Source: Candidatus Micrarchaeota archaeon (GTDB taxonomy: Archaea; Micrarchaeota; Micrarchaeia; Norongarragalinales; UBA8480). Taken from it: a stretch of DNA of 26,651 nt. The DNA lies in contig JAZDHP010000053.1 in NCBI GenBank assembly GCA_043805855.1, positions 1 to 26,651 of the forward strand, given 5' to 3'. The notes beneath the pieces are model-generated. The model made no database searches, had not been told where the DNA came from, and saw nothing but the letters and a program-made list of their open reading frames with translations. Within the stretch, counting starts at the first letter, position 1; every line of letters begins with the position of its first letter. This document shows positions 5,695 to 16,302 of this stretch, piece after piece. The translations under genes were made by a program, and so were the position numbers.

Positions 5695-5827
5695 GGGCTT
5701 GTAGTCGAATGGTAAGACGCCGCCTCCGCAAGGTGGAGATTCCGGGTTCGATAAGCCTTTTCTTTAAAAAAGAAAAGCCTTCGGGAAAAGAAACTCCCGA
5801 AAACGCTCGAACATCCCGGCAAGTCCA
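5695..5827 (+). tRNA. tRNA-Ala(CGC) with a 61-nt BHB intron at 59/60 (5753-5813)
   Basis: Acceptor stem GGGCTTG/CAAGTCC with G3.U70 and A73; anticodon arm CCGCC-TCCGCAA-GGTGG; T-stem CCGGG/CCCGG. BHB: central helix TTCG/CGAA, bulges ATA and CAT, intron helix AGC/GCT. Spliced T-loop TTCGATT. CCA not encoded. Confidence 0.93.
5757..5793 (+). repeat. Three-tract (Y / R / mirror-R) element, copy A, in tRNA-Ala intron
   Basis: CTTTTCTTT-aaa-AAAGAAAAG-ccttcgg-GAAAAGAAA. Confidence 0.9.
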
Positions 5828-5832
5828 TAAGC

Positions 5833-5874
5833 CTTTTTTCTTTAAGAAAGAAAAAAGCCTTGGGAAAAAAGAAA
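5833..5874 (+). repeat. Three-tract element, copy B, in tRNA-Ala 3' trailer
   Basis: CTTTTTTCTTT-aag-AAAGAAAAAAG-ccttgg-GAAAAAAGAAA. Confidence 0.9.
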
Positions 5875-5901
5875 CTCTGAAAAGAAAAACCTTAGAAATT
5901 T

Positions 5902-6567
5902 CTAAAGTTTAACCACCTGATAATCTTGCACTTCTTTTTCTGACAAGCCACACCCGGCGTTTTTCAATGAATAGATAGCAGCGTGGAAAGCTGGCTCTGC
6001 ATCGCTGCCAAACGAATCAAAATAACCGCGCCTAGCTGCGGCGACGAGCAGTTCACTCGAACGAATTACATTAACCTTGCCAACTAAATTTGTAAATTCA
6101 CTGATAGCCTTTTGGTTAACCATAACTCGCGCGTTGTAAGCGAGGGAAATATTCTCCTGCAGCAGCGCAGGATCTTCAACCATTAACCGCGTTGTCTTCT
6201 CGTCAATTGCAAGCGCGTCGCACTTAAACTGCTTGTAAACCGCAAGACACGCTGCTTCGCCGCTGTGCAGCAAACGCAGTTGCTTACCACGAATAGAAAA
6301 ACTAGAATTAGCATAGTGAACTATACTGTCAACAAGCGACTGGTCAACGTTGACAATTTCCAAATCTCCATCTTCAATTGACTTACGCAAACGCAGCGCA
6401 GAGAAAGCATAGCGGCTCACGTTAATTGGCTTTAGCACAATTTCGCTTTCAACCGCCCTCGGTATAAGAAACTCGCCCCCCTTATGCGATAAGAATCTCA
6501 ACACCTTCACTAGACAAGTGCTGGAAAACGAAATCAAAGGCCCGCTATCACAAACAATTTTACTCAT
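5902..6567 (-). CDS. PIN-domain-like protein (DUF3368/VapC-like)
   Basis: 'IVCDSGPLI' (first acidic site), 'LHSGEAACLA' and 'LAIDEKTTR' follow the PIN acidic-residue pattern. Start reassigned to ATG 6567, which has GTGA upstream. Confidence 0.7.
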   Translation of the reverse strand: MSKIVCDSGPLISFSSTCLVKVLRFLSHKGGEFLIPRAVESEIVLKPINVSRYAFSALRLRKSIEDGDLEIVNVDQSLVDSIVHYANSSFSIRGKQLRLLHSGEAACLAVYKQFKCDALAIDEKTTRLMVEDPALLQENISLAYNARVMVNQKAISEFTNLVGKVNVIRSSELLVAAARRGYFDSFGSDAEPAFHAAIYSLKNAGCGLSEKEVQDYQVVKL

Positions 6568-6574
6568 GTAAACA

Positions 6575-7111
6575 TCACGTGAACAATTTATCCGCCAGTG
6601 CAATACGCTGGCTAACTTTTTTAGATTCAAACTTATCAGCAAGCGTCATAGCACCTAAATAGCTCAACAGTTCGCGGCGGTCTGCACTGGTTAACTCAAC
6701 CGCAATTCCAATAGACGCGCCGTGACTGTACAACTGAGATGCGGTTTTCAACCGCGCTTTTTCAACAACACTTACAACAAACCCGCCTAAATCACTACTT
6801 AGTTCGTCAATGTCAGTTAAAATATTGTCAATAATCCCGCTGCACGTGTTTCCAGTGCACTTTTCGCCCTGCGTTAAACGCTGGGTCAACTGCTGCGAAA
6901 ATTTCTTCCACCGTGAGCTGTGCACAATGTGCGGCTTGTCAAATAACTTCGCAAGTGCGAATGCAACGATGCTGAACTCAGCAATTTGTTGATCATTCAG
7001 CGCAAGCGCATCTTCGGCACAAACGTGGGCAAACTCTTTCAAACCATCAGTGTCCTGCGAGGCGAATAGTTTACGCAACGAGCTCAACCTTTCAGAAACA
7101 CTAACTTCCAT
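6575..7111 (-). CDS. Hypothetical protein with a UPF0175-like C-terminal HTH (possible antitoxin-like partner of the PIN protein)
   Basis: 'LYSHGASIGIAVELTS' resembles the UPF0175 pattern 'LY..G.IS.G.AAELAG'; ends 7 bp before the PIN gene start; its own start is uncertain. Confidence 0.5.
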   Translation of the reverse strand: MEVSVSERLSSLRKLFASQDTDGLKEFAHVCAEDALALNDQQIAEFSIVAFALAKLFDKPHIVHSSRWKKFSQQLTQRLTQGEKCTGNTCSGIIDNILTDIDELSSDLGGFVVSVVEKARLKTASQLYSHGASIGIAVELTSADRRELLSYLGAMTLADKFESKKVSQRIALADKLFT

Positions 7112-7217
7112 GCAAAACCAACACAAGACATACATAAAAAACAAACGTTTCTATTCGTCCACTTTGCGAACCGTAAACTTCAATAGCCTAACCACAATAA
7201 CAAACAAAGCAAAACAA

Positions 7218-7265
7218 CTATAAACCTTAGTTTAGCTAAGTTTAACTTAGGTGAATTAAGTTTAT
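7218..7265 (+). promoter_or_regulatory. TATA-like box followed by a 10-bp-phased operator array upstream of the TA pair
   Basis: CTATAAA at 7218, then CTTAGTTTAG CTAAGTTTAA CTTAGGTGAA TTAAGTTTAT; includes the perfect inverted repeat CTAAGTT-T-AACTTAG (7236-7250). Confidence 0.55.
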
Positions 7266-7551
7266 GAAAAGCGAGGGGAAAAGCAAAGTGAATGTTAACT
7301 TAATTGTAGACGACTACACAAACCGCGTGTTAGGCGTGATAAAAGAAAAATACGGGCTAAAAGACAAGGGAGAGGCTCTGTGTACTTTTGCCGATATGTA
7401 CGGCGATGATTTTGTTGAACGCGAAGTAAGAGAAGATGCCGCTAAAAGAATTATTGAAAGCTGCGACGCACATATCAAAAAATACGGCTACAAAGGAATG
7501 AGCGATAAGGAACTTATGAACTTACTCGGGATAACAAAAAATGACCTTTGA
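7264..7551 (+). CDS. Antitoxin, DUF2683-like
   Basis: 'VNLIVDDYTNRVLGVIKEKYGLKDKGEAL' matches the DUF2683 pattern as I recall it; overlaps the downstream toxin by 11 bp. Confidence 0.7.
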   Translation: MKSEGKSKVNVNLIVDDYTNRVLGVIKEKYGLKDKGEALCTFADMYGDDFVEREVREDAAKRIIESCDAHIKKYGYKGMSDKELMNLLGITKNDL

Positions 7552-7816
7552 ATATATTACTTCTGATAAATTAAAGCTCAAAATGACAGCTATAAGCAAA
7601 ACTGACAAAGCACTAGCAGTTAAACTATTCAAAAAAATAAAAGAAATTACCTCACGTGACAACAATACAATTGAATTTTACAAAAACTTACGGCAGCCAA
7701 TGCAAGAATACAAACGAGTTCACATTGACCCGTTTGTCTTAACTTTTAAAGTATATCAATCACACAACTTAATATTATTTGACGATCTTAACCATCACGA
7801 TAACATCTACAAATAA
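7541..7816 (+). CDS. RelE/ParE-superfamily toxin (YafQ/RelE-like mRNA interferase)
   Basis: 91 aa, basic; 'YKNLRQPMQEYKRVHIDPFVLTF...HHDNIY'. Confidence 0.8.
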   Translation: MTFEYITSDKLKLKMTAISKTDKALAVKLFKKIKEITSRDNNTIEFYKNLRQPMQEYKRVHIDPFVLTFKVYQSHNLILFDDLNHHDNIYK

Positions 7817-7841
7817 AAATGCGCAGAGGTAACAACATAGA

Positions 7842-8375
7842 GTGGCTTACTATTATCTAGATATTGAAACGTTCAGTGAATCGCTTCCTAACCCAATTAC
7901 GGACAAGATTATTTCAATTCAATTCCAGGAAATCACACCAATCGGAGAGCCAGCTGGAGAGCTAACGATTTTGAAAGAGTGGGAGAAAAGCGAAGAGCAA
8001 ATTCTACGCGAGTTTACACCACTCTTGAAACCGTGGGCTTTCATCCCGGTTGGGAATAATTTAAACTTCGAACGCAAATTCCTCAAAACTCGCTGCTTGC
8101 AACACGGCGTTCCATTTGACATCTACGATTTTACCTTCTCTACTCCATCAATAGACATTCAACCACTATTTGTGATTCTAAACAAGGGTAATTTCAAAGG
8201 GTGCGGCATGCACCACTTTACTTCCAAAAAGACAAACGGCGCCGTGATTGCTCCATGGTACAAGAAGAAAGAGTTTGACAAAATTGAGAACTATATCAGA
8301 GAGGAAACCAACGCTTTTCTTGAGTTTTACCAAAAATGCTGCTGTGAATTACCTAAACTAATTGAAAAAACCTAG
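7842..8375 (+). CDS. Standalone RNase H-like / DEDD 3'-5' exonuclease domain protein
   Basis: 'YLDIET' (Exo I), 'GNNLNFE' (Exo II-like) and 'YIREE' (Exo III-like); GAGGT upstream of the GTG. Confidence 0.7.
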   Translation: MAYYYLDIETFSESLPNPITDKIISIQFQEITPIGEPAGELTILKEWEKSEEQILREFTPLLKPWAFIPVGNNLNFERKFLKTRCLQHGVPFDIYDFTFSTPSIDIQPLFVILNKGNFKGCGMHHFTSKKTNGAVIAPWYKKKEFDKIENYIREETNAFLEFYQKCCCELPKLIEKT

Positions 8376-8431
8376 AAAATAGCAGCAAACTAGCTCTACA
8401 ACTTGTATCCACTAACCAGTTTAAAGTTAGA

Positions 8432-8467
8432 TTTATATACTCTCGACGTGTCATGATTGTGTCATGA
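8432..8467 (+). promoter_or_regulatory. TATA box with a downstream direct-repeat operator
   Basis: TTTATATA at 8432-8439; GTGTCATGA at 8448-8456 and 8459-8467, each containing the palindrome TCATGA. Confidence 0.55.
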
Positions 8468-8506
8468 CGATAACTAGATGCTGTTGAAGCAGCTGCGTTA
8501 ATCGTT

Positions 8507-8965
8507 ATGGTAAATGGGTATAAAAGGGTTATGGACTCGGGGGAGTTTGACAACGTAACCGCGGAGTTCCGCGAGTTTTCCTCTAGAATGAAGGATCCTA
8601 TTGTTGTTGGCACTTTACTTCACAAGTTAACAGAAGAGAGGCAATCCACTAACTTACTACTTAGAGAGATAAATGCTAAGCTAGACAAGTTGGGAGAAAT
8701 GGAAAAGAAATTCAGCGAACTTGAAGCTAAGATAAACAAAGTAAACGCACAAAAAGTGCCAGCCAAGAGTAAAATGTTGCCTGAAGTTGACGAAGCAATT
8801 ATTGCATTTATTAAAAGTAAAAGCGCGGTTTGCGCTGAAGATGTGCAGGAAGAATTTAAGTACAAAGGGAAAAACGCAGCGAGTGCTCGTTTGAACCGCT
8901 TGTGCAGCCTTGGGGTTTTGAAAAAATCTCAAGTTGGTAAGAGAGTTTTCTTTGAGAAGAATTGA
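8507..8965 (+). CDS. Coiled-coil plus C-terminal winged-HTH protein (putative regulator)
   Basis: Heptad region 'LLREINAKLDKLGEMEKKFSELEAKI', then wHTH-like 'AIIAFIK...AEDVQEEF...AASARLNRL...GVLKK...GKRVFF'. The true start may be ATG 8531. Confidence 0.7.
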   Translation: MVNGYKRVMDSGEFDNVTAEFREFSSRMKDPIVVGTLLHKLTEERQSTNLLLREINAKLDKLGEMEKKFSELEAKINKVNAQKVPAKSKMLPEVDEAIIAFIKSKSAVCAEDVQEEFKYKGKNAASARLNRLCSLGVLKKSQVGKRVFFEKN

Positions 8966-9216
8966 CGCTTGAAAGGCGTGCCTTTGTTCAACCCACCCAA
9001 AATTAACGAAGCACGCAGAACAAGACGAGGCGAATAGCCTCGGTAGGAAAGCGAGATAAACCATCTCGCCCACCAAACACCCCCAAAGACACGAGAGTGT
9101 CTTAAGGTGCTTAGTTCGAAACGCTATGGCGTTCGACACGATGAAGCACCAGGAGAACGTAAGAACCAGAGGATCGTAAAACACTTTTTGATTGCTGGGA
9201 AAACGTTCTCCTACCT
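8966..9216 (+). ncRNA. Candidate structured non-coding RNA, unassigned
   Basis: Six consecutive stems: 8976-9016, CGAGGC/GCCTCG, GCGAGAT/ATCTCGC, AAGACAC-GAGA-GTGTCTT, GGTGCTT/AAGCACC and AGGAGAACGT/ACGTTCTCCT; followed by a T-tract at 9218-9228. Confidence 0.6.
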
Positions 9217-9245
9217 ATTTCTTTTTTTGTTAAAATTAGTGAAAA

Positions 9246-10286
9246 CTAGTCCATTCTTTTAAGTAGTTCGGCGCGCAGCCGCTGTGCTTCTTTGAAAGTA
9301 AGTGCCGGAATTGCGTTTATTGCTTTGCCAGATTCGTTTTGGCTGTAAACTTGCCTTGCGCCGCTTTGTACTTTTAGTGAATATAAGCTAAAGAGTTTTT
9401 CAAGCGGCCCCTGTGAAATTGTTAAGTCTTGAATTGCGGAAAATGGAGTTGAAGTTTTTACATTGCTGAAAATAATTGAATAGGAAAGTATTGTTTGGGT
9501 TTCTCGCAGTTCAAATTTAAACGTCGAGGCAATAATCGCTTGAACTCCGAAGGAAAAAACTAAGCCAAAACCAACGTAAACTAAAAGGATCAAAATATCA
9601 AAGGGTATTGAACTAAGCGTCGCAATTAAACCAATAAAAACTAATGAAATAAAAGTAATAATTGCTTTTAGCGCAAGTAAGCGGTAATACAGCGAACGGC
9701 TAAGCACAGCAGAGGTAAAAACGTTTTCTTCACTTGCTGAAACGCAAGTAGTTTGTTTAACTCCCGCTACGCCCACAGCTTTACTTTTCGTTGTTGATTT
9801 TTGTGTTGACTTAGCTTTTTTGCTCAAAATAATAGACTTAATGTATTCCGCGTCTTTAGTGCGAATGCCTGGAATTATTCCAGAGAAGCCAGATTGAAAA
9901 GACATTGTAGAGATTTTGAGTGTTGACGCACTTAATATCATTGAAAGAAAATCTTGAACTAAGTCAACTTCTTGGATTTCTTTATAGGAAAAAGAAGATA
10001 CATTTTTGGAAATTACGCCGTGTTTAATTGTCACGACATCGGGGCTTAAAGTAACTGAATAATTTTGCCACTGTAGTTTAGCCCATTTGTAAGAACAGAT
10101 AGAAATAATTGCAGTTAACAAAATCCAAATTGGAATCGCAAACCAAGTTGACAAATTAAGAGCTTTAGGTAAGAATAACGCAGGGAAAAAGGCAAACATT
10201 GCTAAAATAAAAATCCAAATTAACCAAGGGTAAAGCATAAATGCAAATCTAGGTTTGAAAATTTGCTCTTGTGCAGTTGACGCCAA
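9246..10286 (-). CDS. Membrane-flanked bacterial PH-domain protein (bPH_2, YdbT-like, two repeats)
   Basis: Two [TM-TM-PH] units: 'YKEIQEVDLVQDFL...STLKIST' and 'FSAIQDLTISQGPLEKLFSLYSLKVQS'. Confidence 0.8.
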   Translation of the reverse strand: MASTAQEQIFKPRFAFMLYPWLIWIFILAMFAFFPALFLPKALNLSTWFAIPIWILLTAIISICSYKWAKLQWQNYSVTLSPDVVTIKHGVISKNVSSFSYKEIQEVDLVQDFLSMILSASTLKISTMSFQSGFSGIIPGIRTKDAEYIKSIILSKKAKSTQKSTTKSKAVGVAGVKQTTCVSASEENVFTSAVLSRSLYYRLLALKAIITFISLVFIGLIATLSSIPFDILILLVYVGFGLVFSFGVQAIIASTFKFELRETQTILSYSIIFSNVKTSTPFSAIQDLTISQGPLEKLFSLYSLKVQSGARQVYSQNESGKAINAIPALTFKEAQRLRAELLKRMD

Positions 10287-10287
10287 T

Positions 10288-10773
10288 TTACTTTCGCCCC
10301 TTTTTGCCGTGAATTTGGCTCAAGATTTCTTCGCGAAGCGCAGTTGCGTTTTTTGGATTTACTCCATCAATGTGCGCAGCTACTCCAGAAGTAATTGTTG
10401 GAGTTGAAACATGAACGTCCCAAATTCCAAAAATCCTATCAAGTATATCCTGGTCAACGTAAACATCTTGAATTTTGCTATAAGGAAGTGTAGTTTCTCG
10501 CGTTGTAATGACGCCTTTTTTAATTACCATTTGCTTTGAGGGCAAATCGTAAAAGTAGCTCTTATAATATTCGTTTTCAAACCAGACTTGCCAAATTGCA
10601 AGGATAACCCAAACAACTGCAACTGGAAGTAACGCATCGTTAATCGTTGCTGAAGTTAAAAATACCCAAAGTGCAGCTAAAACTGCTAAAAGCACAGTCC
10701 AACTTATCATGGATAAAATCCATCGCTTTACAATTTTAACCCGTTCAAGGGGATATTCATTAACAGTTGCCAT
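10288..10773 (-). CDS. bPH_2 domain membrane protein (YdbS-like)
   Basis: Two TM helices, then 'IKKGVIT...LPYSKIQDVYVDQDILDRIFGI'. Confidence 0.85.
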   Translation of the reverse strand: MATVNEYPLERVKIVKRWILSMISWTVLLAVLAALWVFLTSATINDALLPVAVVWVILAIWQVWFENEYYKSYFYDLPSKQMVIKKGVITTRETTLPYSKIQDVYVDQDILDRIFGIWDVHVSTPTITSGVAAHIDGVNPKNATALREEILSQIHGKKGRK

Positions 10774-10823
10774 AACTACAAGTAGTCAGTTCGAATATTT
10801 AAAATGCAACACAGCACAGCCAG

Positions 10824-11579
10824 TTAAAAAGAGAGTAAATTATTATTTTTCTCTAGCCATTCTTCGCACGTGTTGTGCCCCGGGCAAAATTGTTCAACTG
10901 TTTGCCAAAACGCCTTGCTGTGATTAAAGTGCTTTAAGTGCGATAACTCGTGAATAATCAAATAATCAATAACGTACAGCGGCGCCATTGCTAACTTCCA
11001 GTTGAAATTCAAATTACCTCGTTTGGAGCAGCTGCCCCACTTTGTAGTCTGCCCGCGAATCGCTATATCGCCAGCTTGAACTTGCAACGCAGCTGCGTGT
11101 AGTGCAACGCGTTCTTCGAACAACTTCCGCGCTTCGCGCTTGTAAAAACCAGTCAAAGCTTTCCGCGCACGTTGCTCCTCATAGCGTTTTAATTTTAAGT
11201 TGAACCTTTTACCGTTGCTTTCGTCGCTTGATAGCGTCGCGTAGTCTCTCAACCCAGCTGAAACTACAATTTGGCAATCTTCGCCAAGATACTTCGCAGT
11301 GCTGCCGTCGAGAAAGTTAAAAGAATAACTTGGCTTTTCATTTTCTTCAGCAAGTTTTCGGGCGAGCCACTGCTGATTTTCAGTGGCAAATTGCATTGCT
11401 CTAGCTTCACTTGCGCGTAGTGGCATTGTTAACTTAATTTTTCCCCGCGAGACGCTTAAACGTAGATTGCGTGATTTGCGCGAACGGCGCAGCGTAATTG
11501 GAATTACTTTCCCGCCTAACAGTAGCTCCTTAGTAATTTCAACTGCTGGCTGCTGCGATTTGGAAAAAAAGTTGAACAT
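10824..11579 (-). CDS. YgjP/DUF45 (SprT/M48-like) zinc metalloprotease
   Basis: 'KWGSCS...LNFNWKL...IDYLIIHELSHLKHFNHSKAFW' (HExxH). Confidence 0.9.
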   Translation of the reverse strand: MFNFFSKSQQPAVEITKELLLGGKVIPITLRRSRKSRNLRLSVSRGKIKLTMPLRASEARAMQFATENQQWLARKLAEENEKPSYSFNFLDGSTAKYLGEDCQIVVSAGLRDYATLSSDESNGKRFNLKLKRYEEQRARKALTGFYKREARKLFEERVALHAAALQVQAGDIAIRGQTTKWGSCSKRGNLNFNWKLAMAPLYVIDYLIIHELSHLKHFNHSKAFWQTVEQFCPGHNTCEEWLEKNNNLLSF

Positions 11580-11604
11580 CGTTTAGTTATTAGCGCGAGA
11601 GATT

Positions 11605-12945
11605 TTAATTACTGCGTATGAGTTCAACCGCTTCTTTCACAGTTACGAGTTTCTCTACGCCGGTTTCGAGATTGCGCAGTGTAATTTTTTTCTTTTCAGC
11701 TTCTTTTGGCCCGATGATAGCCGCATAGGTAAAACCTTGCTTTGCCGCGTATTCAAGGTTTTTGGAAATTGAGCGGCCAATTAAATCAACTGCAGTGCGT
11801 ACTCCAGCTGAGCGTAGTTCACTCGCAGTTTCAATGCACTGCGAAATTGTTTTAATTGGGATAACATAAACTTCTGCGTTTGTCTTGCGCATTTTGTTCC
11901 CTTTTAGTTTAAGCACTTCACTTATCACGTCTAACCCAAATGAAATTCCAATTGCAGGGATACTCTCACGGCCAGCAAATTGGCCGATTAAATTATCATA
12001 GCGCCCGCCACCTGCAAGACTAGAGGTAATTGGACAATTGCGACAGTAAGCTTCAAACACGGTTCCAGTGTAATAAGATAACCCGCGTGCGAGTGAAATG
12101 TCAATTGAAATGTTTTCAGTTTTGTCGAAACTCTCAAGGTAGTCGAATACTTCTTGCAGTTCAATTAAACCTTGTTCGGCTTTTGCGTTGCCTTTTACTA
12201 ATTTACTGCACTTTGAAAGCGTTTCACTTGCTTTTAGCTCTTCAAATTCCAAGATTGTTTCCAAGATTTTACGCGAAGCTGAAATGGAAATTCCCTTGTC
12301 AACAAGTTCCTTTTGAACTCCCTCGCGTCCGATTTTTGTAAGTTTATCAATGGAAAGGATAGCTATTTCAATAGAATCTACGGTAACGCCGAGTTTTTCT
12401 AGTAAACCTTCAAGTAACTTACGGTTGTTTACTTTTATAACAAAATTAATTCCCAACGCAGTGAACGCATCGCACACAAGCGCAAGAACTTCTGCGTCGG
12501 CAACCCCGCTTTTACATCCAACAATATCAACATCGCACTGTATGAATTCACGGTAGCGGCCAAGTTTTAGTGGGCCGTCGCGGAACACTGGGCCAATTGC
12601 ATAGCGCTTTACTGGCATTGGAAGATTAGGATTAGCTGCAATTACGCGACACAGTGGAACGGTTAAATCATAACGTAGCCCGAGTTCGCGTTTGCCTTGG
12701 TCTTGGAACTTGTAAGTTTCTTTTAGAATTTCTGCCCCGCCGGCGTATTTGCTTGAAAGCACACTCCATTTTTCAAAAGCGGGGGTTTCAAACGGCGTGA
12801 AGCCATATAGCTCAAAAGTATTTTTCAAAACATTTACAACGCCATCGCGGAGTAGTTTTTCCTCGAATAGAAAATCTCTAGTTCCCCGCGGCGCAGCTAG
12901 AGACACGTCTTCCAACTTTTCATCTTTTTCGTTTTCTGGGTTCAT
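11605..12945 (-). CDS. hisS: Histidine--tRNA ligase
   Basis: 'PRGTRDF', 'LRYDLTVP', 'GRYREFIQCDVD', 'LARGLSYYTG', 'GGGRYD' and a C-terminal anticodon-binding domain. Confidence 0.98.
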   Translation of the reverse strand: MNPENEKDEKLEDVSLAAPRGTRDFLFEEKLLRDGVVNVLKNTFELYGFTPFETPAFEKWSVLSSKYAGGAEILKETYKFQDQGKRELGLRYDLTVPLCRVIAANPNLPMPVKRYAIGPVFRDGPLKLGRYREFIQCDVDIVGCKSGVADAEVLALVCDAFTALGINFVIKVNNRKLLEGLLEKLGVTVDSIEIAILSIDKLTKIGREGVQKELVDKGISISASRKILETILEFEELKASETLSKCSKLVKGNAKAEQGLIELQEVFDYLESFDKTENISIDISLARGLSYYTGTVFEAYCRNCPITSSLAGGGRYDNLIGQFAGRESIPAIGISFGLDVISEVLKLKGNKMRKTNAEVYVIPIKTISQCIETASELRSAGVRTAVDLIGRSISKNLEYAAKQGFTYAAIIGPKEAEKKKITLRNLETGVEKLVTVKEAVELIRSN

Positions 12946-12955
12946 TTTATTCGCC

Positions 12956-13001
12956 TTTCTTTTTGGGCCGAACAGGCCTTTTTCTTTTCTAAAGAAAAAG
13001 G
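12956..13001 (-). repeat. Three-tract element, copy D, in tRNA-His 3' trailer / hisS leader
   Basis: Minus strand: CTTTTTCTTT-aga-AAAGAAAAAG-gcctgttcggccc-AAAAAGAAA. Confidence 0.85.
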
Positions 13002-13009
13002 CGGTTTAG

Positions 13010-13144
13010 GGCAAGGGTCGGGATTTTCCAGCATTCGGTTTTCTTTTCCCGACGGCTTTTCTTTTTTCAAAAAGAAAAGGCTCTTTGAACCCGAGTCAAA
13101 GGATCCACAGTCCTCTATACTGACCAAGCTATACTACCCTCGCC
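13010..13144 (-). tRNA. tRNA-His(GTG) with encoded G-1 and a 60-nt intron at 59/60 (13083-13024)
   Basis: G-1/C73; acceptor stem GCGAGGG/CCCTTGC; anticodon arm GAGGA-CTGTGGA-TCCTT; T-stem TCGGG/CCCGA. BHB: central helix TTCA/GGAA (one A.G mismatch), bulges AAG and AAT, intron helix AGC/GCT. Spliced T-loop TTCAAAT. Confidence 0.93.
13039..13079 (-). repeat. Three-tract element, copy C, in tRNA-His intron
   Basis: Minus strand: CTTTTCTTTT-tgaa-AAAAGAAAAG-ccgtcgg-GAAAAGAAAA. Confidence 0.9.
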
Positions 13145-13325
13145 ATAAATTTAACGTTGTTTGCAGCGCATATGGTACGCGCTAGAAGTTAAAAAATGGG
13201 AAGTTTGTTTAAAAGCAGTTAAGATAAAGAGTAGCGGTTGCGTTTCCTTGTTTTCAATAATGAAGTAAACCACGACTCACATTTATCACTTATTTCTTGT
13301 GCTTTTTGTACCTTTTAATATAGTC

Positions 13326-13384
13326 GCTATCAGCCGCTATCAACTTCATCACAAGTCAGAGGTTGTTCAGGTTCATCACTTAGC
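13326..13384 (-). ncRNA. Archaeal C/D-box methylation-guide sRNA
   Basis: Minus strand: GCTA-A-GTGATGA(C)-ACCTGAACAACCT-CTGA(D')-CTT-GTGATGA(C')-AGTTGATAGCGG-CTGA(D)-TAGC. Four perfect boxes, 13- and 12-nt guides, 4-bp terminal stem, intergenic. Confidence 0.92.
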
Positions 13385-13436
13385 AAAGTAAAAGGGGAAA
13401 AGTTAAATTTAAGCGGGACGGTTCGCTAGAAAAAAG

Positions 13437-14039
13437 CTATTTCGCGCCGAGGATTTCTTTTACGCGTTTTTTTTTCATTGCTAGTTCATGCAAGGGAGTT
13501 CCTTCAAAGTTATTGCGAGTTGCAGTGTGTTGAAAGAACCGCTCTCTCAAAGGCAACGCATTTTGCCTAGCGATAATACCTTGCGGCGATTTGCTTTTGC
13601 TACTTGGCACCGCTAGGAACACCTTTGTGCCTTTTTTGATTTGTGGCGCAGTCCAATGCAAAAAAGCATTAACTAAATATTCAGTAGGCCGGCGTCCAAG
13701 TTGCTGTTGCAATTCGCGACTAGCCGCGGTTTCCATTTCAGGAGACCATTGCAATTTACGCCCAGTTCCAGCGTATTGTGTTCGCAGGCGTTGAACTGCA
13801 CCTATCCATAAGTGCCCGTCAAAAGTTAAGTCAAATTGCATTACAAAACGCGGTTCTCCCTTAGCGTCGCGTAGAACCAAGTGAGGAGAAGGTGAAAAAT
13901 ACTTCGCTAGTTTAAATCTACCTCGAGTGGGACATTTATCGCCGTATAGCCATCCTGGTTCTTTAATTATGCTATGCGTATCTGTTTGTAAAATTACTTC
14001 AGTGTTTGCCGCTTTCCATTGCTCATGGGGAGAAGTCAT
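13437..14039 (-). CDS. Hypothetical protein
   Basis: 200-aa ORF overlapping the antiporter stop (ATGA-type coupling); no family recognised. Confidence 0.65.
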   Translation of the reverse strand: MTSPHEQWKAANTEVILQTDTHSIIKEPGWLYGDKCPTRGRFKLAKYFSPSPHLVLRDAKGEPRFVMQFDLTFDGHLWIGAVQRLRTQYAGTGRKLQWSPEMETAASRELQQQLGRRPTEYLVNAFLHWTAPQIKKGTKVFLAVPSSKSKSPQGIIARQNALPLRERFFQHTATRNNFEGTPLHELAMKKKRVKEILGAK

Positions 14040-15853
14040 TTTAATTTTACCCCTCGAGTTTGTTTCTTTGGTTCAAGTATTGAATAGTTTTCCATGAAAG
14101 AATGCGCTGCTTTGCCAAGGTGAATTGCAGCAAGTACCGTATAAACCGCCGGCACTAGCAGCGCAAGCGCAAGTGAAGCGTAGTTAGAGTACATTAGCAA
14201 CGTAGCTACTATTCCAAGTACGACCATTATGAAACCTGCAAATACGTCGAACGCGTTTGACTGCGGGACGGAAACGTTTTTAGATTGCTTGAAAACAGTT
14301 GCGAATATTGAAACTTCAATTGTTCGGATTAACGCTTTCAAGTACTTTGCAAAATTGTAAAGTGGCCAAATTATCAACGGCAACAGCAACAGCGCTAGCG
14401 ATAACTCGGTTGGAACTCCTTGAAGAAATGAAAAAGTAATTTCTTTACGAAGGATAAACGCGAGGTACACTACGGATATAGCAATTGTTAAGTTTGAAAA
14501 AATATGCTTGAGTAAAATAGCAGTTTGGTTTTGAAAAGCGCGGGTTATGAAAACAGTTTCAAGCCCTTCAATTTGGTCGCCTGCAAGTGCAATGCGTTGC
14601 CTTACCTTTATTGGATAAATTTTGAGAAGCGCAGCTGCAACCGCGTCAATTCTATCAAAAATAAATGGCCCGATTAACGTTGTTAAAATCGTGAGGGAAA
14701 ACGCGATTGACAGCAAGTCGCCGGAATTTCCAATTAAACAACTCCCAGCCGCAACGCAATTAGGCGCGTTTAGCTTCTCCGCTGCAGACGCGATTAAAAT
14801 ACCGAATTCGCCGATGGGAATCATTATCGCGCCTATTGCAACTGAACTTGGAATATTAAGCCCAATTGCAGTGCCAAACACGCCGTACGAAAAAATCTTC
14901 ACAATACAATAAAGCGCAACAAGCACAAGTACAAACACAATCAACGTAACCGAATGAGGTAGTAAGACTTTTGATCCAAAACTAACAAAGAAGAACAAGA
15001 GGAACAATTCACGGAGGAAACTAAACTCGCGCTTGATGCGGTCGGCGAATCCAGTTTCTGCAAGTGCAAATCCCGCAAAGTACGCGCCGAGAATTGCAGA
15101 GAGGCCAAGGAAAATTCCTAAAAAGGATACCACAATTCCAGTTCCAAGTGCGAATAGGAAAATTTGGTCACGGTGCCCCCAAGCTTCAAGCCGCTCCATA
15201 ACTGGCCGGGAAACTTTTCCAACTATGAACAACATTGCAATGACGAAAATCAACGCGTTTAGAACCGCAATGTTAAACGACTGGTTACTAGCGACAGTAG
15301 AGAGAAACACAACTAACAGCACTGCAAAAATATCCTGTATAATTAGCACGGAAATTGCAATGCGCGATTCAAGCGAATGCAAAATGTTCTTCTCAATAAC
15401 AAACTTAACCGCTTCAACTGTACTAGCGGCAACTAACATTGAACCAATTACAAGCGACTCCATATCGCCAAAACCGAACAACTTCGAAACAATAAAGCCA
15501 AGTGCAAACGCGCCGGCCATTTCAATAAATGACAACACAACGGCAATGCCGCCAGTTTCCTTAAACCGCTTTAAGTTAACCTCTAGACCTAAATAAAACA
15601 AAACCGCAAGTAGCCCAATTTCACCAAGCGCAACAGAAATGCCAGTCTCGGAAATATACTGCAACCCCTGCTGGCCTAAGAATAAACCAGCTAAAATGAA
15701 ACCAACAGAAGAAGAAACACCAAACCTGGACAAAATAACGCCAAAAACTAAAGCAACTAGCAACACAACGCCAAACTCAGTTACAGGTAAACCAGAAACA
15801 CTTGAAACAACTGCACTCGCGCCGTGTTCAACCAAACCAGTAAATGGAAACAT
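14036..15853 (-). CDS. Cation:proton antiporter, CPA2 family (KefB/KhtU-like) with extra C-terminal TM segments
   Basis: 'GEIGLLAVLFYLGLE', 'VLIIQDIFAV', 'ILGAYFAG' and 'PIGEFGILIA'. The start is uncertain; 15913 would collide with the likely tRNA-Arg promoter. Confidence 0.88.
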   Translation of the reverse strand: MFPFTGLVEHGASAVVSSVSGLPVTEFGVVLLVALVFGVILSRFGVSSSVGFILAGLFLGQQGLQYISETGISVALGEIGLLAVLFYLGLEVNLKRFKETGGIAVVLSFIEMAGAFALGFIVSKLFGFGDMESLVIGSMLVAASTVEAVKFVIEKNILHSLESRIAISVLIIQDIFAVLLVVFLSTVASNQSFNIAVLNALIFVIAMLFIVGKVSRPVMERLEAWGHRDQIFLFALGTGIVVSFLGIFLGLSAILGAYFAGFALAETGFADRIKREFSFLRELFLLFFFVSFGSKVLLPHSVTLIVFVLVLVALYCIVKIFSYGVFGTAIGLNIPSSVAIGAIMIPIGEFGILIASAAEKLNAPNCVAAGSCLIGNSGDLLSIAFSLTILTTLIGPFIFDRIDAVAAALLKIYPIKVRQRIALAGDQIEGLETVFITRAFQNQTAILLKHIFSNLTIAISVVYLAFILRKEITFSFLQGVPTELSLALLLLPLIIWPLYNFAKYLKALIRTIEVSIFATVFKQSKNVSVPQSNAFDVFAGFIMVVLGIVATLLMYSNYASLALALLVPAVYTVLAAIHLGKAAHSFMENYSILEPKKQTRGVKLK

Positions 15854-15968
15854 ACCAAAAAGTAACGCAAAACCACAATAAAAACACTCGCGGTTCACGC
15901 GAGACACACCCATTTAAAACAAAAACAACCTATAAACATAAAAGGGCCCGTAGCTCAGCCTGGCGATC

Positions 15969-16013
15969 CTTTTTCTTTTAAAAAAAGAAAAAGCAATCGA
16001 TGGAAAAAGAAAA
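15969..16013 (+). repeat. Three-tract element, copy E (Arg D-loop intron)
   Basis: CTTTTTCTTTT-aaa-AAAAGAAAAAG-caatcgatg-GAAAAAGAAAA. Confidence 0.9.
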
Positions 16014-16081
16014 CCAACGATTGCCTCTATAAATTAAAAGAAAATCGGTCAGGTAAATAGAGCGATTGCCTCCTAACGACC

Positions 16082-16125
16082 TTTTCTTTCTTAAAAGAAA
16101 GAAAACGATCGACGAAAAGAAAGAA
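16082..16125 (+). repeat. Three-tract element, copy F (Arg anticodon intron)
   Basis: TTTTCTTTCTT-aa-AAGAAAGAAAA-cgatcgacg-AAAAGAAAGAA. Confidence 0.9.
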
Positions 16126-16163
16126 TTTTGGAGCAAGCAATAGGTCCCGCGTTCGAAGACATC

Positions 16164-16203
16164 CCTTTTCTTCAAAAGAAAAGGTTCGTCACTCCTAAAA
16201 GAA
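16164..16203 (+). repeat. Three-tract element, copy G (Arg T-loop intron)
   Basis: ccTTTTCTT-caa-AAGAAAAgg-ttcgtcactcct-AAAAGAA. Confidence 0.85.
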
Positions 16204-16302
16204 CGGGTGAGTCGAAAATCGCGGCGGGCTCGCTTTTCTTTTTAGAAAAACGTTTAAAACGCAGCGTGTCCCAAATTGTTCTTGCGTTTTAAGGTGATTA
16301 GA

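Follow-up and report, generated by a model that had tools for sequence, protein, structure and literature searches.

Repeats with the potential to fold into intrastrand triplexes are known from bacteria, in which PIT elements, BoxC, and TMECO share a strand order of pyrimidine tract (Y), complementary purine tract (R), and antiparallel second purine tract; in the sections of PMC4666352 cited here, these class II motifs also read as class III motifs on the opposite strand, are present in many copies at non-coding sites, and have an obscure function. Separately, transposed tRNA introns are known from the Thermoproteales, in which, according to the citing passages of PMC3239211, related introns occupy unrelated tRNAs and non-canonical sites, several can be present in one gene, and gains are recent. 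Non-canonical tRNA introns at T-loop position 59/60 have been described in the main text on ARMAN-2 (Candidatus Micrarchaeum acidiphilum; Fujishima et al. 2011, PMC3239211). Here we describe a dispersed mobile module of ∼45–65 nt that is present in Micrarchaeota and occurs seven times in a 26,651-nt contig (JAZDHP010000053.1 of assembly GCA_043805855.1, hereafter the window) of a Candidatus Micrarchaeota archaeon. The genome to which the window belongs (G000) totals 1.03 Mb in 67 contigs and is 92% complete, and three congeners (G001, G002, and G003) have coding DNA that is ∼70% identical.

The module consists of Y, a 3–4-nt loop, and R, which together form a perfect hairpin, followed by a 4–14-nt linker and then a purine tract that mirrors R. 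The tracts are 8–12 nt long and A/T-rich, with one to three G. A sequence-only reading of the window had reported seven copies, one in each of five tRNA introns and two in tRNA 3′ trailers, and all seven are present at those places, their hosts being three tRNA genes that are called after intron excision (Table 1). When a relaxed three-tract pattern was run on the window and on 100 dinucleotide shuffles of it, the pattern matched six times in the window and not once in any shuffle; the seventh copy was missed solely because its linker is longer than the allowed gap. The second C/G/G that had been noted in all three tracts of copy F is present, and the two mismatches of copy D are a CC at the stem base, in place of the GG expected from the mirror.

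The same reading had proposed that the third tract is a mirror image and not a direct repeat of R, and that the three tracts covary from copy to copy, and it had named as a refutation a mirror symmetry no better than chance in further genomic copies. Perfect pyrimidine/purine hairpins of at least 8 bp were collected genome-wide with the third tract ignored in ascertainment, which gave 77 loci, 69 of them clear family members (a scan for imperfect hairpins returned mostly mis-registered versions of the perfect ones and was discarded). In 42 of the 74 testable hairpins, those with a purine core of at least 8 nt, an exact mirror of R was found no more than 45 nt downstream, and mirrors with a single mismatch account for 9 more among all 77 loci. 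When each hairpin was paired with the downstream region of another copy (n = 2000), the mean number of perfect mirrors was 13.5 (S.D. 2.8, maximum 24), and the outcome was unchanged when the permutation was limited to the 69 family members. Among the 75 loci with asymmetric cores, there were 40 perfect mirrors compared with 4 perfect direct repeats, and the mirror fit was better than the direct-repeat fit in 53, equal in 16, and worse in 6. The R cores comprise 28 distinct purine sequences; variants with two or three G are among them, and in these, too, the three tracts match. These data bear out the proposed mirror symmetry, its covariation copy by copy, and its extension beyond the window. 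As replication templates direct or inverted copies and never a mirror image, the three-way match requires selection on a contact between strands.

The Y/R stem was also analyzed in copies ascertained without regard to Y, on the R/mirror pair. In this set, 50 Y/R stems were perfect, 8 had one mismatch at the loop edge, and there was a single T:G pair. Because the other helices of 18 T-loop introns contain 22 G:U among 330 pairs, the Y/R stem appears to obey a stricter rule than RNA helices ordinarily do.

In tRNA genes, the module lies within introns of the archaeal bulge-helix-bulge type. Standard finders recognize few of the host genes: on the whole genome, ARAGORN called 3 tRNAs (11 in intron mode), and the Rfam tRNA model gave 6 matches, 5 of them above the cut-off. 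When candidate bulge-helix-bulge junctions were enumerated and the joined sequence was given to ARAGORN, excision restored a tRNA cloverleaf in 27 of 55 clusters; these 27 account for 41 of the 69 elements. In a separate junction test restricted to the T-loop, 18 of the 69 elements lie in introns with a full bulge-helix-bulge, strictly defined as the T-stem followed by a 4-bp helix (TTCR/YGAA) and two 3-nt bulges. The minimum-energy folds of these strict T-loop introns are uniform, with a three-way junction that carries the Y/R hairpin and a second hairpin whose 8–11-nt loop is the third tract; the stem that closes this loop differs in sequence among copies, and its pairing is kept. The genome also encodes a splicing endonuclease (PF01974, 78.5 bits, in a 412-amino acid open frame). 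Because the intron forms a bulge-helix-bulge, this host enzyme could cut the element out, so that insertion would be harmless. The ARMAN-2 introns share the 59/60 position, and both organisms have a splicing endonuclease, a three-unit ϵ2 enzyme in ARMAN-2 (Fujishima et al. 2011, PMC3239211). However, the ARMAN-2 59/60 intron is 13 nt long, and the word hairpin is absent from the main text of that paper, whereas the element-bearing introns found here are 58–64 nt long and built from the repeat.

The earlier proposal that the third tract lies in the loop of a second hairpin in copies A, C, D, E, and G agrees with minimum-free-energy folds, which predict that loop in all five and leave the third tract unpaired in B and F; no hairpin encloses the third tract of copy B. 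In the fold of copy E, the loop hairpin is predicted, but the partner of Y is a fourth purine tract, further downstream, and not R. This additional tract (AAAAGAAAA-like) is at positions 16037–16046, and copy B has one of the same kind at 5880–5889, also downstream of its third tract.

The core pattern of the module is found 42 times in this genome compared with 1 match for a reversed control. It is also found in 20 of 40 relatives from the same order, with 226 matches versus 6 for the reversed control (summed from the table of counts), and the relatives that carry it span several families and have different linkers. Of 201 genomes sampled from the phylum, 45 contain the pattern, and its distribution is patchy, with two large families at 1 of 56 and 0 of 36. 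Kin among these genomes are not independent; the pattern covers only some tract variants, and pattern-negative genomes may hold others. As loci in relatives were chosen by the pattern, the unbiased figures are the whole-genome counts only (the hairpin catalogue, its permutation, and the pattern counts in the relatives and in the phylum sample).

Comparison of orthologous tRNA genes shows gain, loss, and change of the module. In G001, tRNA-Ala has neither the intron nor the trailer copy. In G002, the T-loop intron of this gene has a run length of 7, compared with 4 in G000 and G003, with all three tracts agreeing in each case, and the trailers of the congeners hold unrelated copy types or none. 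In G002, tRNA-His is without the T-loop intron, and its trailer copy has reversed run lengths (3,5 versus 5,3) in all three tracts; tRNA-Arg of the same congener has no D-loop intron, and the intron at its anticodon-loop site is unrelated. As in the Thermoproteales, the introns resemble one another more closely than the genes that carry them: between unrelated tRNAs, identities of T-loop introns reach 97, 93, and 92%, compared with 65, 63, and 52% for the exons. Some transferred introns keep the pairing of their YGAA end with the new host only through wobble. The Thermoproteales belong to a different phylum, and their introns have no triple-tract signature in the citing passages of PMC3239211. 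From the higher identity of introns than exons and their presence or absence among congeners, we conclude that the intron family is, on these sequence comparisons, mobile. The sequence-only reading had left the choice between a mobile element and a processing or termination signal; its mobile part is supported by these comparisons, and its signal part leaves the mirror covariation unexplained.

No clear target duplication was seen between empty and filled orthologous sites, and the assembly contains no autonomous partner of the kind expected for an IS200/IS605-type miniature inverted-repeat transposable element. The idea that the third tract is a pre-existing target recognized by the hairpin was rejected, as the empty orthologous sites in G001 are without a purine tract. 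Among listed sequencing runs, no RNA run contains the window sequence, and one groundwater DNA run contains a small share of it. Contigs assembled from this run came from a ∼90%-identical relative, were broken at repeats, and gave no usable joints. Two antisense copies of a family with a 'caggcgtggcc' linker lie behind tRNA 3′ ends (contig 9, ∼30780–30870, and contig 32, ∼6100–6200), and both are followed by a second, 14–16-nt copy of the tRNA 3′ end, an arrangement with the look of a duplicated 3′ exon or of a footprint left by insertion.

In a hand-made count, ∼60 of the 69 elements lie within or beside tRNA or rRNA genes (the context and orientation counts given here and below are partly hand-curated). 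The element is not confined to tRNA genes, since copies are also found in a 23S rRNA intron, in the spacer between the genes for ribosomal protein S7 and elongation factor 2 (EF-2), and directly after protein-gene stop codons. The 23S rRNA gene contains a head-to-head pair of elements. The match to the 23S rRNA model (locus L052, 84–4336, contig 5) spans 4253 nt versus a model of 2987 nt, indicating ∼1.2 kb of inserts, one of which holds this pair, and the 16S-23S spacer contains an intron-bearing tRNA with two more copies. Five copies begin 1–9 nt past protein-gene stop codons. One of these five is a full copy that takes up the 62-nt S7/EF-2 spacer (locus L053, 2312–2373, contig 40), starting 1 nt after the stop codon and ending 18 nt before the next start, and one copy lies between convergent genes whose stop codons are 9 nt and 3 nt away.

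Copies are found in both orientations relative to the host transcript. Members of the 'caggcgtggcc' family are sense in a T-loop intron on contig 22 and antisense in a T-loop intron on contig 59; the family is also antisense behind the two tRNA 3′ ends described above, and stands head-to-head with a sense copy inside three introns. Introns with two head-to-head elements are found on contig 31 (2161–2253), contig 10 (14174–14285), contig 29 (32890–32996), and contig 5 (near 60434). In these introns, the third tract of one element forms Watson-Crick pairs with the complement of the third tract of the other, so that three hairpins follow one another; perhaps each single copy is one half of a larger palindrome.

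No RNA gene was called in the raw window by ARAGORN, or by Rfam at the gathering threshold. After excision at the bulge-helix-bulge positions, ARAGORN called three tRNAs. The T-loop join of tRNA-Ala is identical to the T-loop of the intron-less orthologue in G001, and the D-loop and anticodon joins of tRNA-Arg are confirmed by the orthologue in G002. The arginine identity that the loop of the tRNA at 5695–5827 might at first suggest was rejected, as ARAGORN called Ala(CGC), with G3:U70; in the ARAGORN fold, this tRNA has C and not the usual U at position 33 of the anticodon loop, and the loop sequence is conserved in three congeners. Behind tRNA-Arg, positions 16233–16300 contain a T-rich run and, after it, an inverted repeat (AAAACGC...GCGTTTT), with the look of a terminator-type hairpin before the next gene.

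Table 1. Host tRNA genes and module copies in the window (positions in nt; BHB, bulge-helix-bulge)
Feature	Position	Strand	Copy	Y	R	Third tract	Mirror match	Remarks
tRNA-Ala(CGC) gene	5695–5827	+						One T-loop (59/60-type) intron; ARAGORN after excision
tRNA-Ala T-loop intron	5753–5813	+	A	5757–5765	5769–5777	5785–5793	9/9	BHB: T-stem, then TTCG/CGAA, two 3-nt bulges; P3 stem, 5780–5786 paired with 5795–5801
tRNA-Ala 3′ trailer	5828–5874	+	B	5833–5843	5847–5857	5864–5874	11/11	Directly after discriminator base
tRNA-His(GTG) gene	13009–13143	-						One T-loop intron; ARAGORN after excision
tRNA-His T-loop intron	13024–13083	-	C	13070–13079	13056–13065	13039–13048	10/10	Relaxed BHB, failed strict filter
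tRNA-His 3′ trailer	12956–13002	-	D	12991–13002	12976–12987	12956–12966	9/11	
tRNA-Arg(CCT) gene	15944–16232	+						Three introns; ARAGORN after excision
tRNA-Arg D-loop intron	15964–16056	+	E	15969–15979	15983–15993	16003–16013	11/11	
tRNA-Arg anticodon-loop (37/38) intron	16076–16135	+	F	16082–16091	16096–16105	16115–16124	10/10	
tRNA-Arg T-loop intron	16158–16218	+	G	16164–16172	16176–16184	16195–16203	7/9	Full BHB junction

We regard an intrastrand triplex as the best explanation of the three-way matching. H-DNA requires a homopurine mirror repeat in the sequence, as in GAA.TTC tracts, and R together with its mirror forms such a repeat on one strand; the element differs from H-DNA in that it adds an inverted copy, Y, which makes both strands self-pairing, and in that its tracts are only 8–12 nt long. 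By the definitions given in PMC4666352, the geometry of the order Y-R-mirror R is that of a purine-motif intrastrand triplex of class II, and the opposite strand falls in class III, in agreement with the earlier reading. All 77 hairpins consist of Y and its Watson-Crick complement on one strand, as do the seven window copies, and where a mirror purine tract accompanies them, it is on the 3′ side. The strand that carries Y-R-mirror R would form A.A-T and G.G-C triplets, and its complement would form T.A-T and C+.G-C triplets in the pyrimidine motif. The reading that we favor, with a probability of roughly 45%, is that of a mobile element whose tracts are matched so that they may fold as an intramolecular triplex, formed in DNA and not in the intron RNA, which would serve the persistence or copying of the element itself. 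We infer each of its three parts, namely triplex formation, the DNA level, and the function.

Under this reading, the triplex would form in DNA when heavily transcribed loci are unwound or supercoiled and both strands are able to fold, and it could aid persistence or copying as, for example, a recombination-prone non-B structure. In tRNA and rRNA genes, the module makes up the body of a bulge-helix-bulge intron whose 3′ end pairs with the exon; in this picture, the element would spread by recombination between conserved tRNA arms and survive because the endonuclease removes it from the RNA. The concentration in stable-RNA genes, the turnover among congeners, and the absence of a transposase partner fit this picture of spread by recombination. 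Pyrimidine-motif stability is driven by T.A-T triplets (Holder et al. 2015, PMC4666352, in the sections cited here), and because the element is A/T-rich, the strand that is antisense to most host tRNAs should form the better triplex. The presence of copies in both orientations relative to the host transcript, and of copies outside introns, is consistent with DNA as the level of triplex formation, which we rank as more likely than intron RNA.

The element differs in several respects from the described class II motifs. These are bacterial, and the element inhabits introns and trailers of archaeal tRNA and rRNA genes; neither tRNA nor intron occurs as a word in the main text of Holder et al. 2015 (PMC4666352), in which archaeal genomes were included. 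TMECO is G/C-rich, has 3-nt second loops, and forms a triplex by circular dichroism and NMR in the sections cited, whereas the element is A/T-rich, has a 4–14-nt and often structured linker, and is described here from sequence. The loop limits quoted in PMC4666352 are 1–6 nt for ITxF and 0–10 nt for the search of Hoyne, and an ITxF search would miss most copies because the second linker is usually above 6 nt. Literature searches that covered the main text of openly available papers found no published description of the element.

Several results weigh against a triplex of this kind. Among the 69 family members, 27 are not perfect mirrors, and where the stem base is GG/CC the third tract has CC or TC and not GG; the imperfect mirrors are mostly these copies, and their CC or TC bases pair in the neighboring stem. 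In G002, the T-loop intron of tRNA-Arg has a Y/R run of 3 (versus 4), and its third tract stays AAAAGAA; in two orthologous trailers, of G002 and G003, R has decayed by loss of a G, and Y still matches the third tract. The catalogue figure for absence of wobble in P2 is circular, since perfect stems were required, and the only independent figure is the count ascertained on the R/mirror pair. In PMC4666352, as far as its cited sections go, G.G-C triplets drive stability in triplexes of the purine motif, so that an A/T-rich one is of the weak kind. A third tract closed in an 8–11-nt loop should be unable to coexist with a 9–11-layer triplex on the same strand, either in RNA or in single-stranded DNA. 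Most copies are sense to the host tRNA, which would also fit a role in RNA: by a T-arm test, 37 elements are sense and 6 antisense, with 15 ambiguous and 11 without a call, although this test is rough, with a background of 0.48 per window and a motif that is palindromic for TTCGAA. A search of the assembly, which is 92% complete, turned up no transposase partner (0 matches to Y1 TnpA, PF01797, and to TnpB, PF07282). Finally, the argument for a triplex is drawn from the sequence of the tracts.

The alternative that we place second, after a triplex in DNA, is a tertiary fold of the RNA, which we regard as unlikely. In such a fold, the purine loop would dock on the Y/R helix in the pre-tRNA or in the excised and possibly circular intron, as a base-triple stack or a loop-helix contact, and the compact intron would let the bulge-helix-bulge junction form, or the excised intron would gain stability. 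All intron copies are transcribed by necessity, the most common orientation is that of the tRNA, and the regular three-way junction displays the third tract in a hairpin loop on a stem that varies in sequence yet stays paired, with G:U pairs. In U.A-U RNA triple helices of the ENE/MALAT1 type, a U-rich internal loop clamps a 3′ tail. The antisense copies read U-tract, U-tract, A-tract and could form U.A-U triples, whereas the common orientation has one U-tract and is without a U-rich internal loop that clamps a 3′ tail. In the sections of Holder et al. 2015 (PMC4666352) cited here, pyrimidine-motif triplexes form in RNA and purine-motif ones do not; the former would favor an RNA fold for the antisense copies, and the latter argues against one for the common orientation and weakens an RNA processing role there. 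Also, a closed 8–11-nt loop should not be able to line a 9–11-bp helix, yet the mirror match spans the full length. An RNA fold is further at odds with the occurrence of one family in both orientations inside T-loop introns, with the retention of the pattern by trailer and post-stop-codon copies that are not introns, and with the near absence of wobble pairs from the Y/R stem, unlike in other RNA helices. Two related readings were rejected: a pseudoknot or A-minor contact, as the hairpin loop is only 3–4 nt and the stem is A-U rich, and pairing of the third tract with Y, which would allow only a symmetric 7–9-bp core and favor a direct repeat.

A bolder proposal, which we consider quite unlikely, is that a sequence-programmed triplex is part of the self-copying of a bulge-helix-bulge intron. 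Variants would recognize themselves by third-strand pairing of like with like, either within an RNA-DNA triplex or in single-stranded DNA that has folded, and this pairing would drive recombination or insertion at stable-RNA genes. One sub-case is that the purine-motif triplex forms in the intron RNA, against current belief.

The places at which copies lie bear on the idea that the element is a terminator or 3′-end element, whose T-rich tracts on both strands would stop the archaeal RNA polymerase after tRNA and protein genes, with the intron copies being secondary. The five copies just past stop codons, the trailer copies that begin right after the tRNA 3′ end, and the copy between convergent genes would all suit such a role. 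Most copies, however, are inside tRNA genes, where termination would be harmful, one occupies the S7/EF-2 operon spacer, and a T-tract needs neither an R tract nor a covarying mirror tract to act, so that we find this idea improbable. We are similarly doubtful that the element is the binding site of a protein that reads the hairpin plus the purine tract, such that the match reflects protein contacts and not strand pairing. The strict conservation of tracts alongside divergent loops and linkers, and a patchy family distribution that could follow a protein partner, agree with a binding site; the 28 tract variants, each internally matched, do not, as a protein would select one sequence, and mirror symmetry should match no known protein-dimer symmetry on single strands. 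Common descent of recent copies combined with homopolymer slippage, without selection on the third tract, would draw on the recency of many copies (introns up to 97% identical) and on the ease with which A/T run lengths change, but this very improbable account is already contradicted by the fall in perfect matches from 42 to ∼14 on permutation of partners within the family, by the inability of replication to template a mirror copy, by the presence of the pattern in 20 of 40 relatives from several families with different linkers, and by the change of an orthologous intron from 4 to 7 in all three tracts.

In this element, intrastrand triplex motifs, known as puzzling repeats of bacteria, coincide with mobile, protein-spliced introns, known from one archaeal order. 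With dozens of matched variants per genome and several hundred matches across relatives, it amounts to a natural compensatory-mutation experiment, which says, insofar as sequences can, that third-strand pairing itself is probably under selection. The element is a direct test system for whether triplexes form and matter in cells. Recognition of the module also provides a simple way to locate and remove introns in genomes such as this one, in which standard finders miss almost every tRNA. If the self-copying proposal were true, it would be the first mobility mechanism for bulge-helix-bulge introns and would provide a natural 9–12-layer triplex with a function. More generally, the element may offer a way into the unsolved problem of the spread of archaeal tRNA introns.

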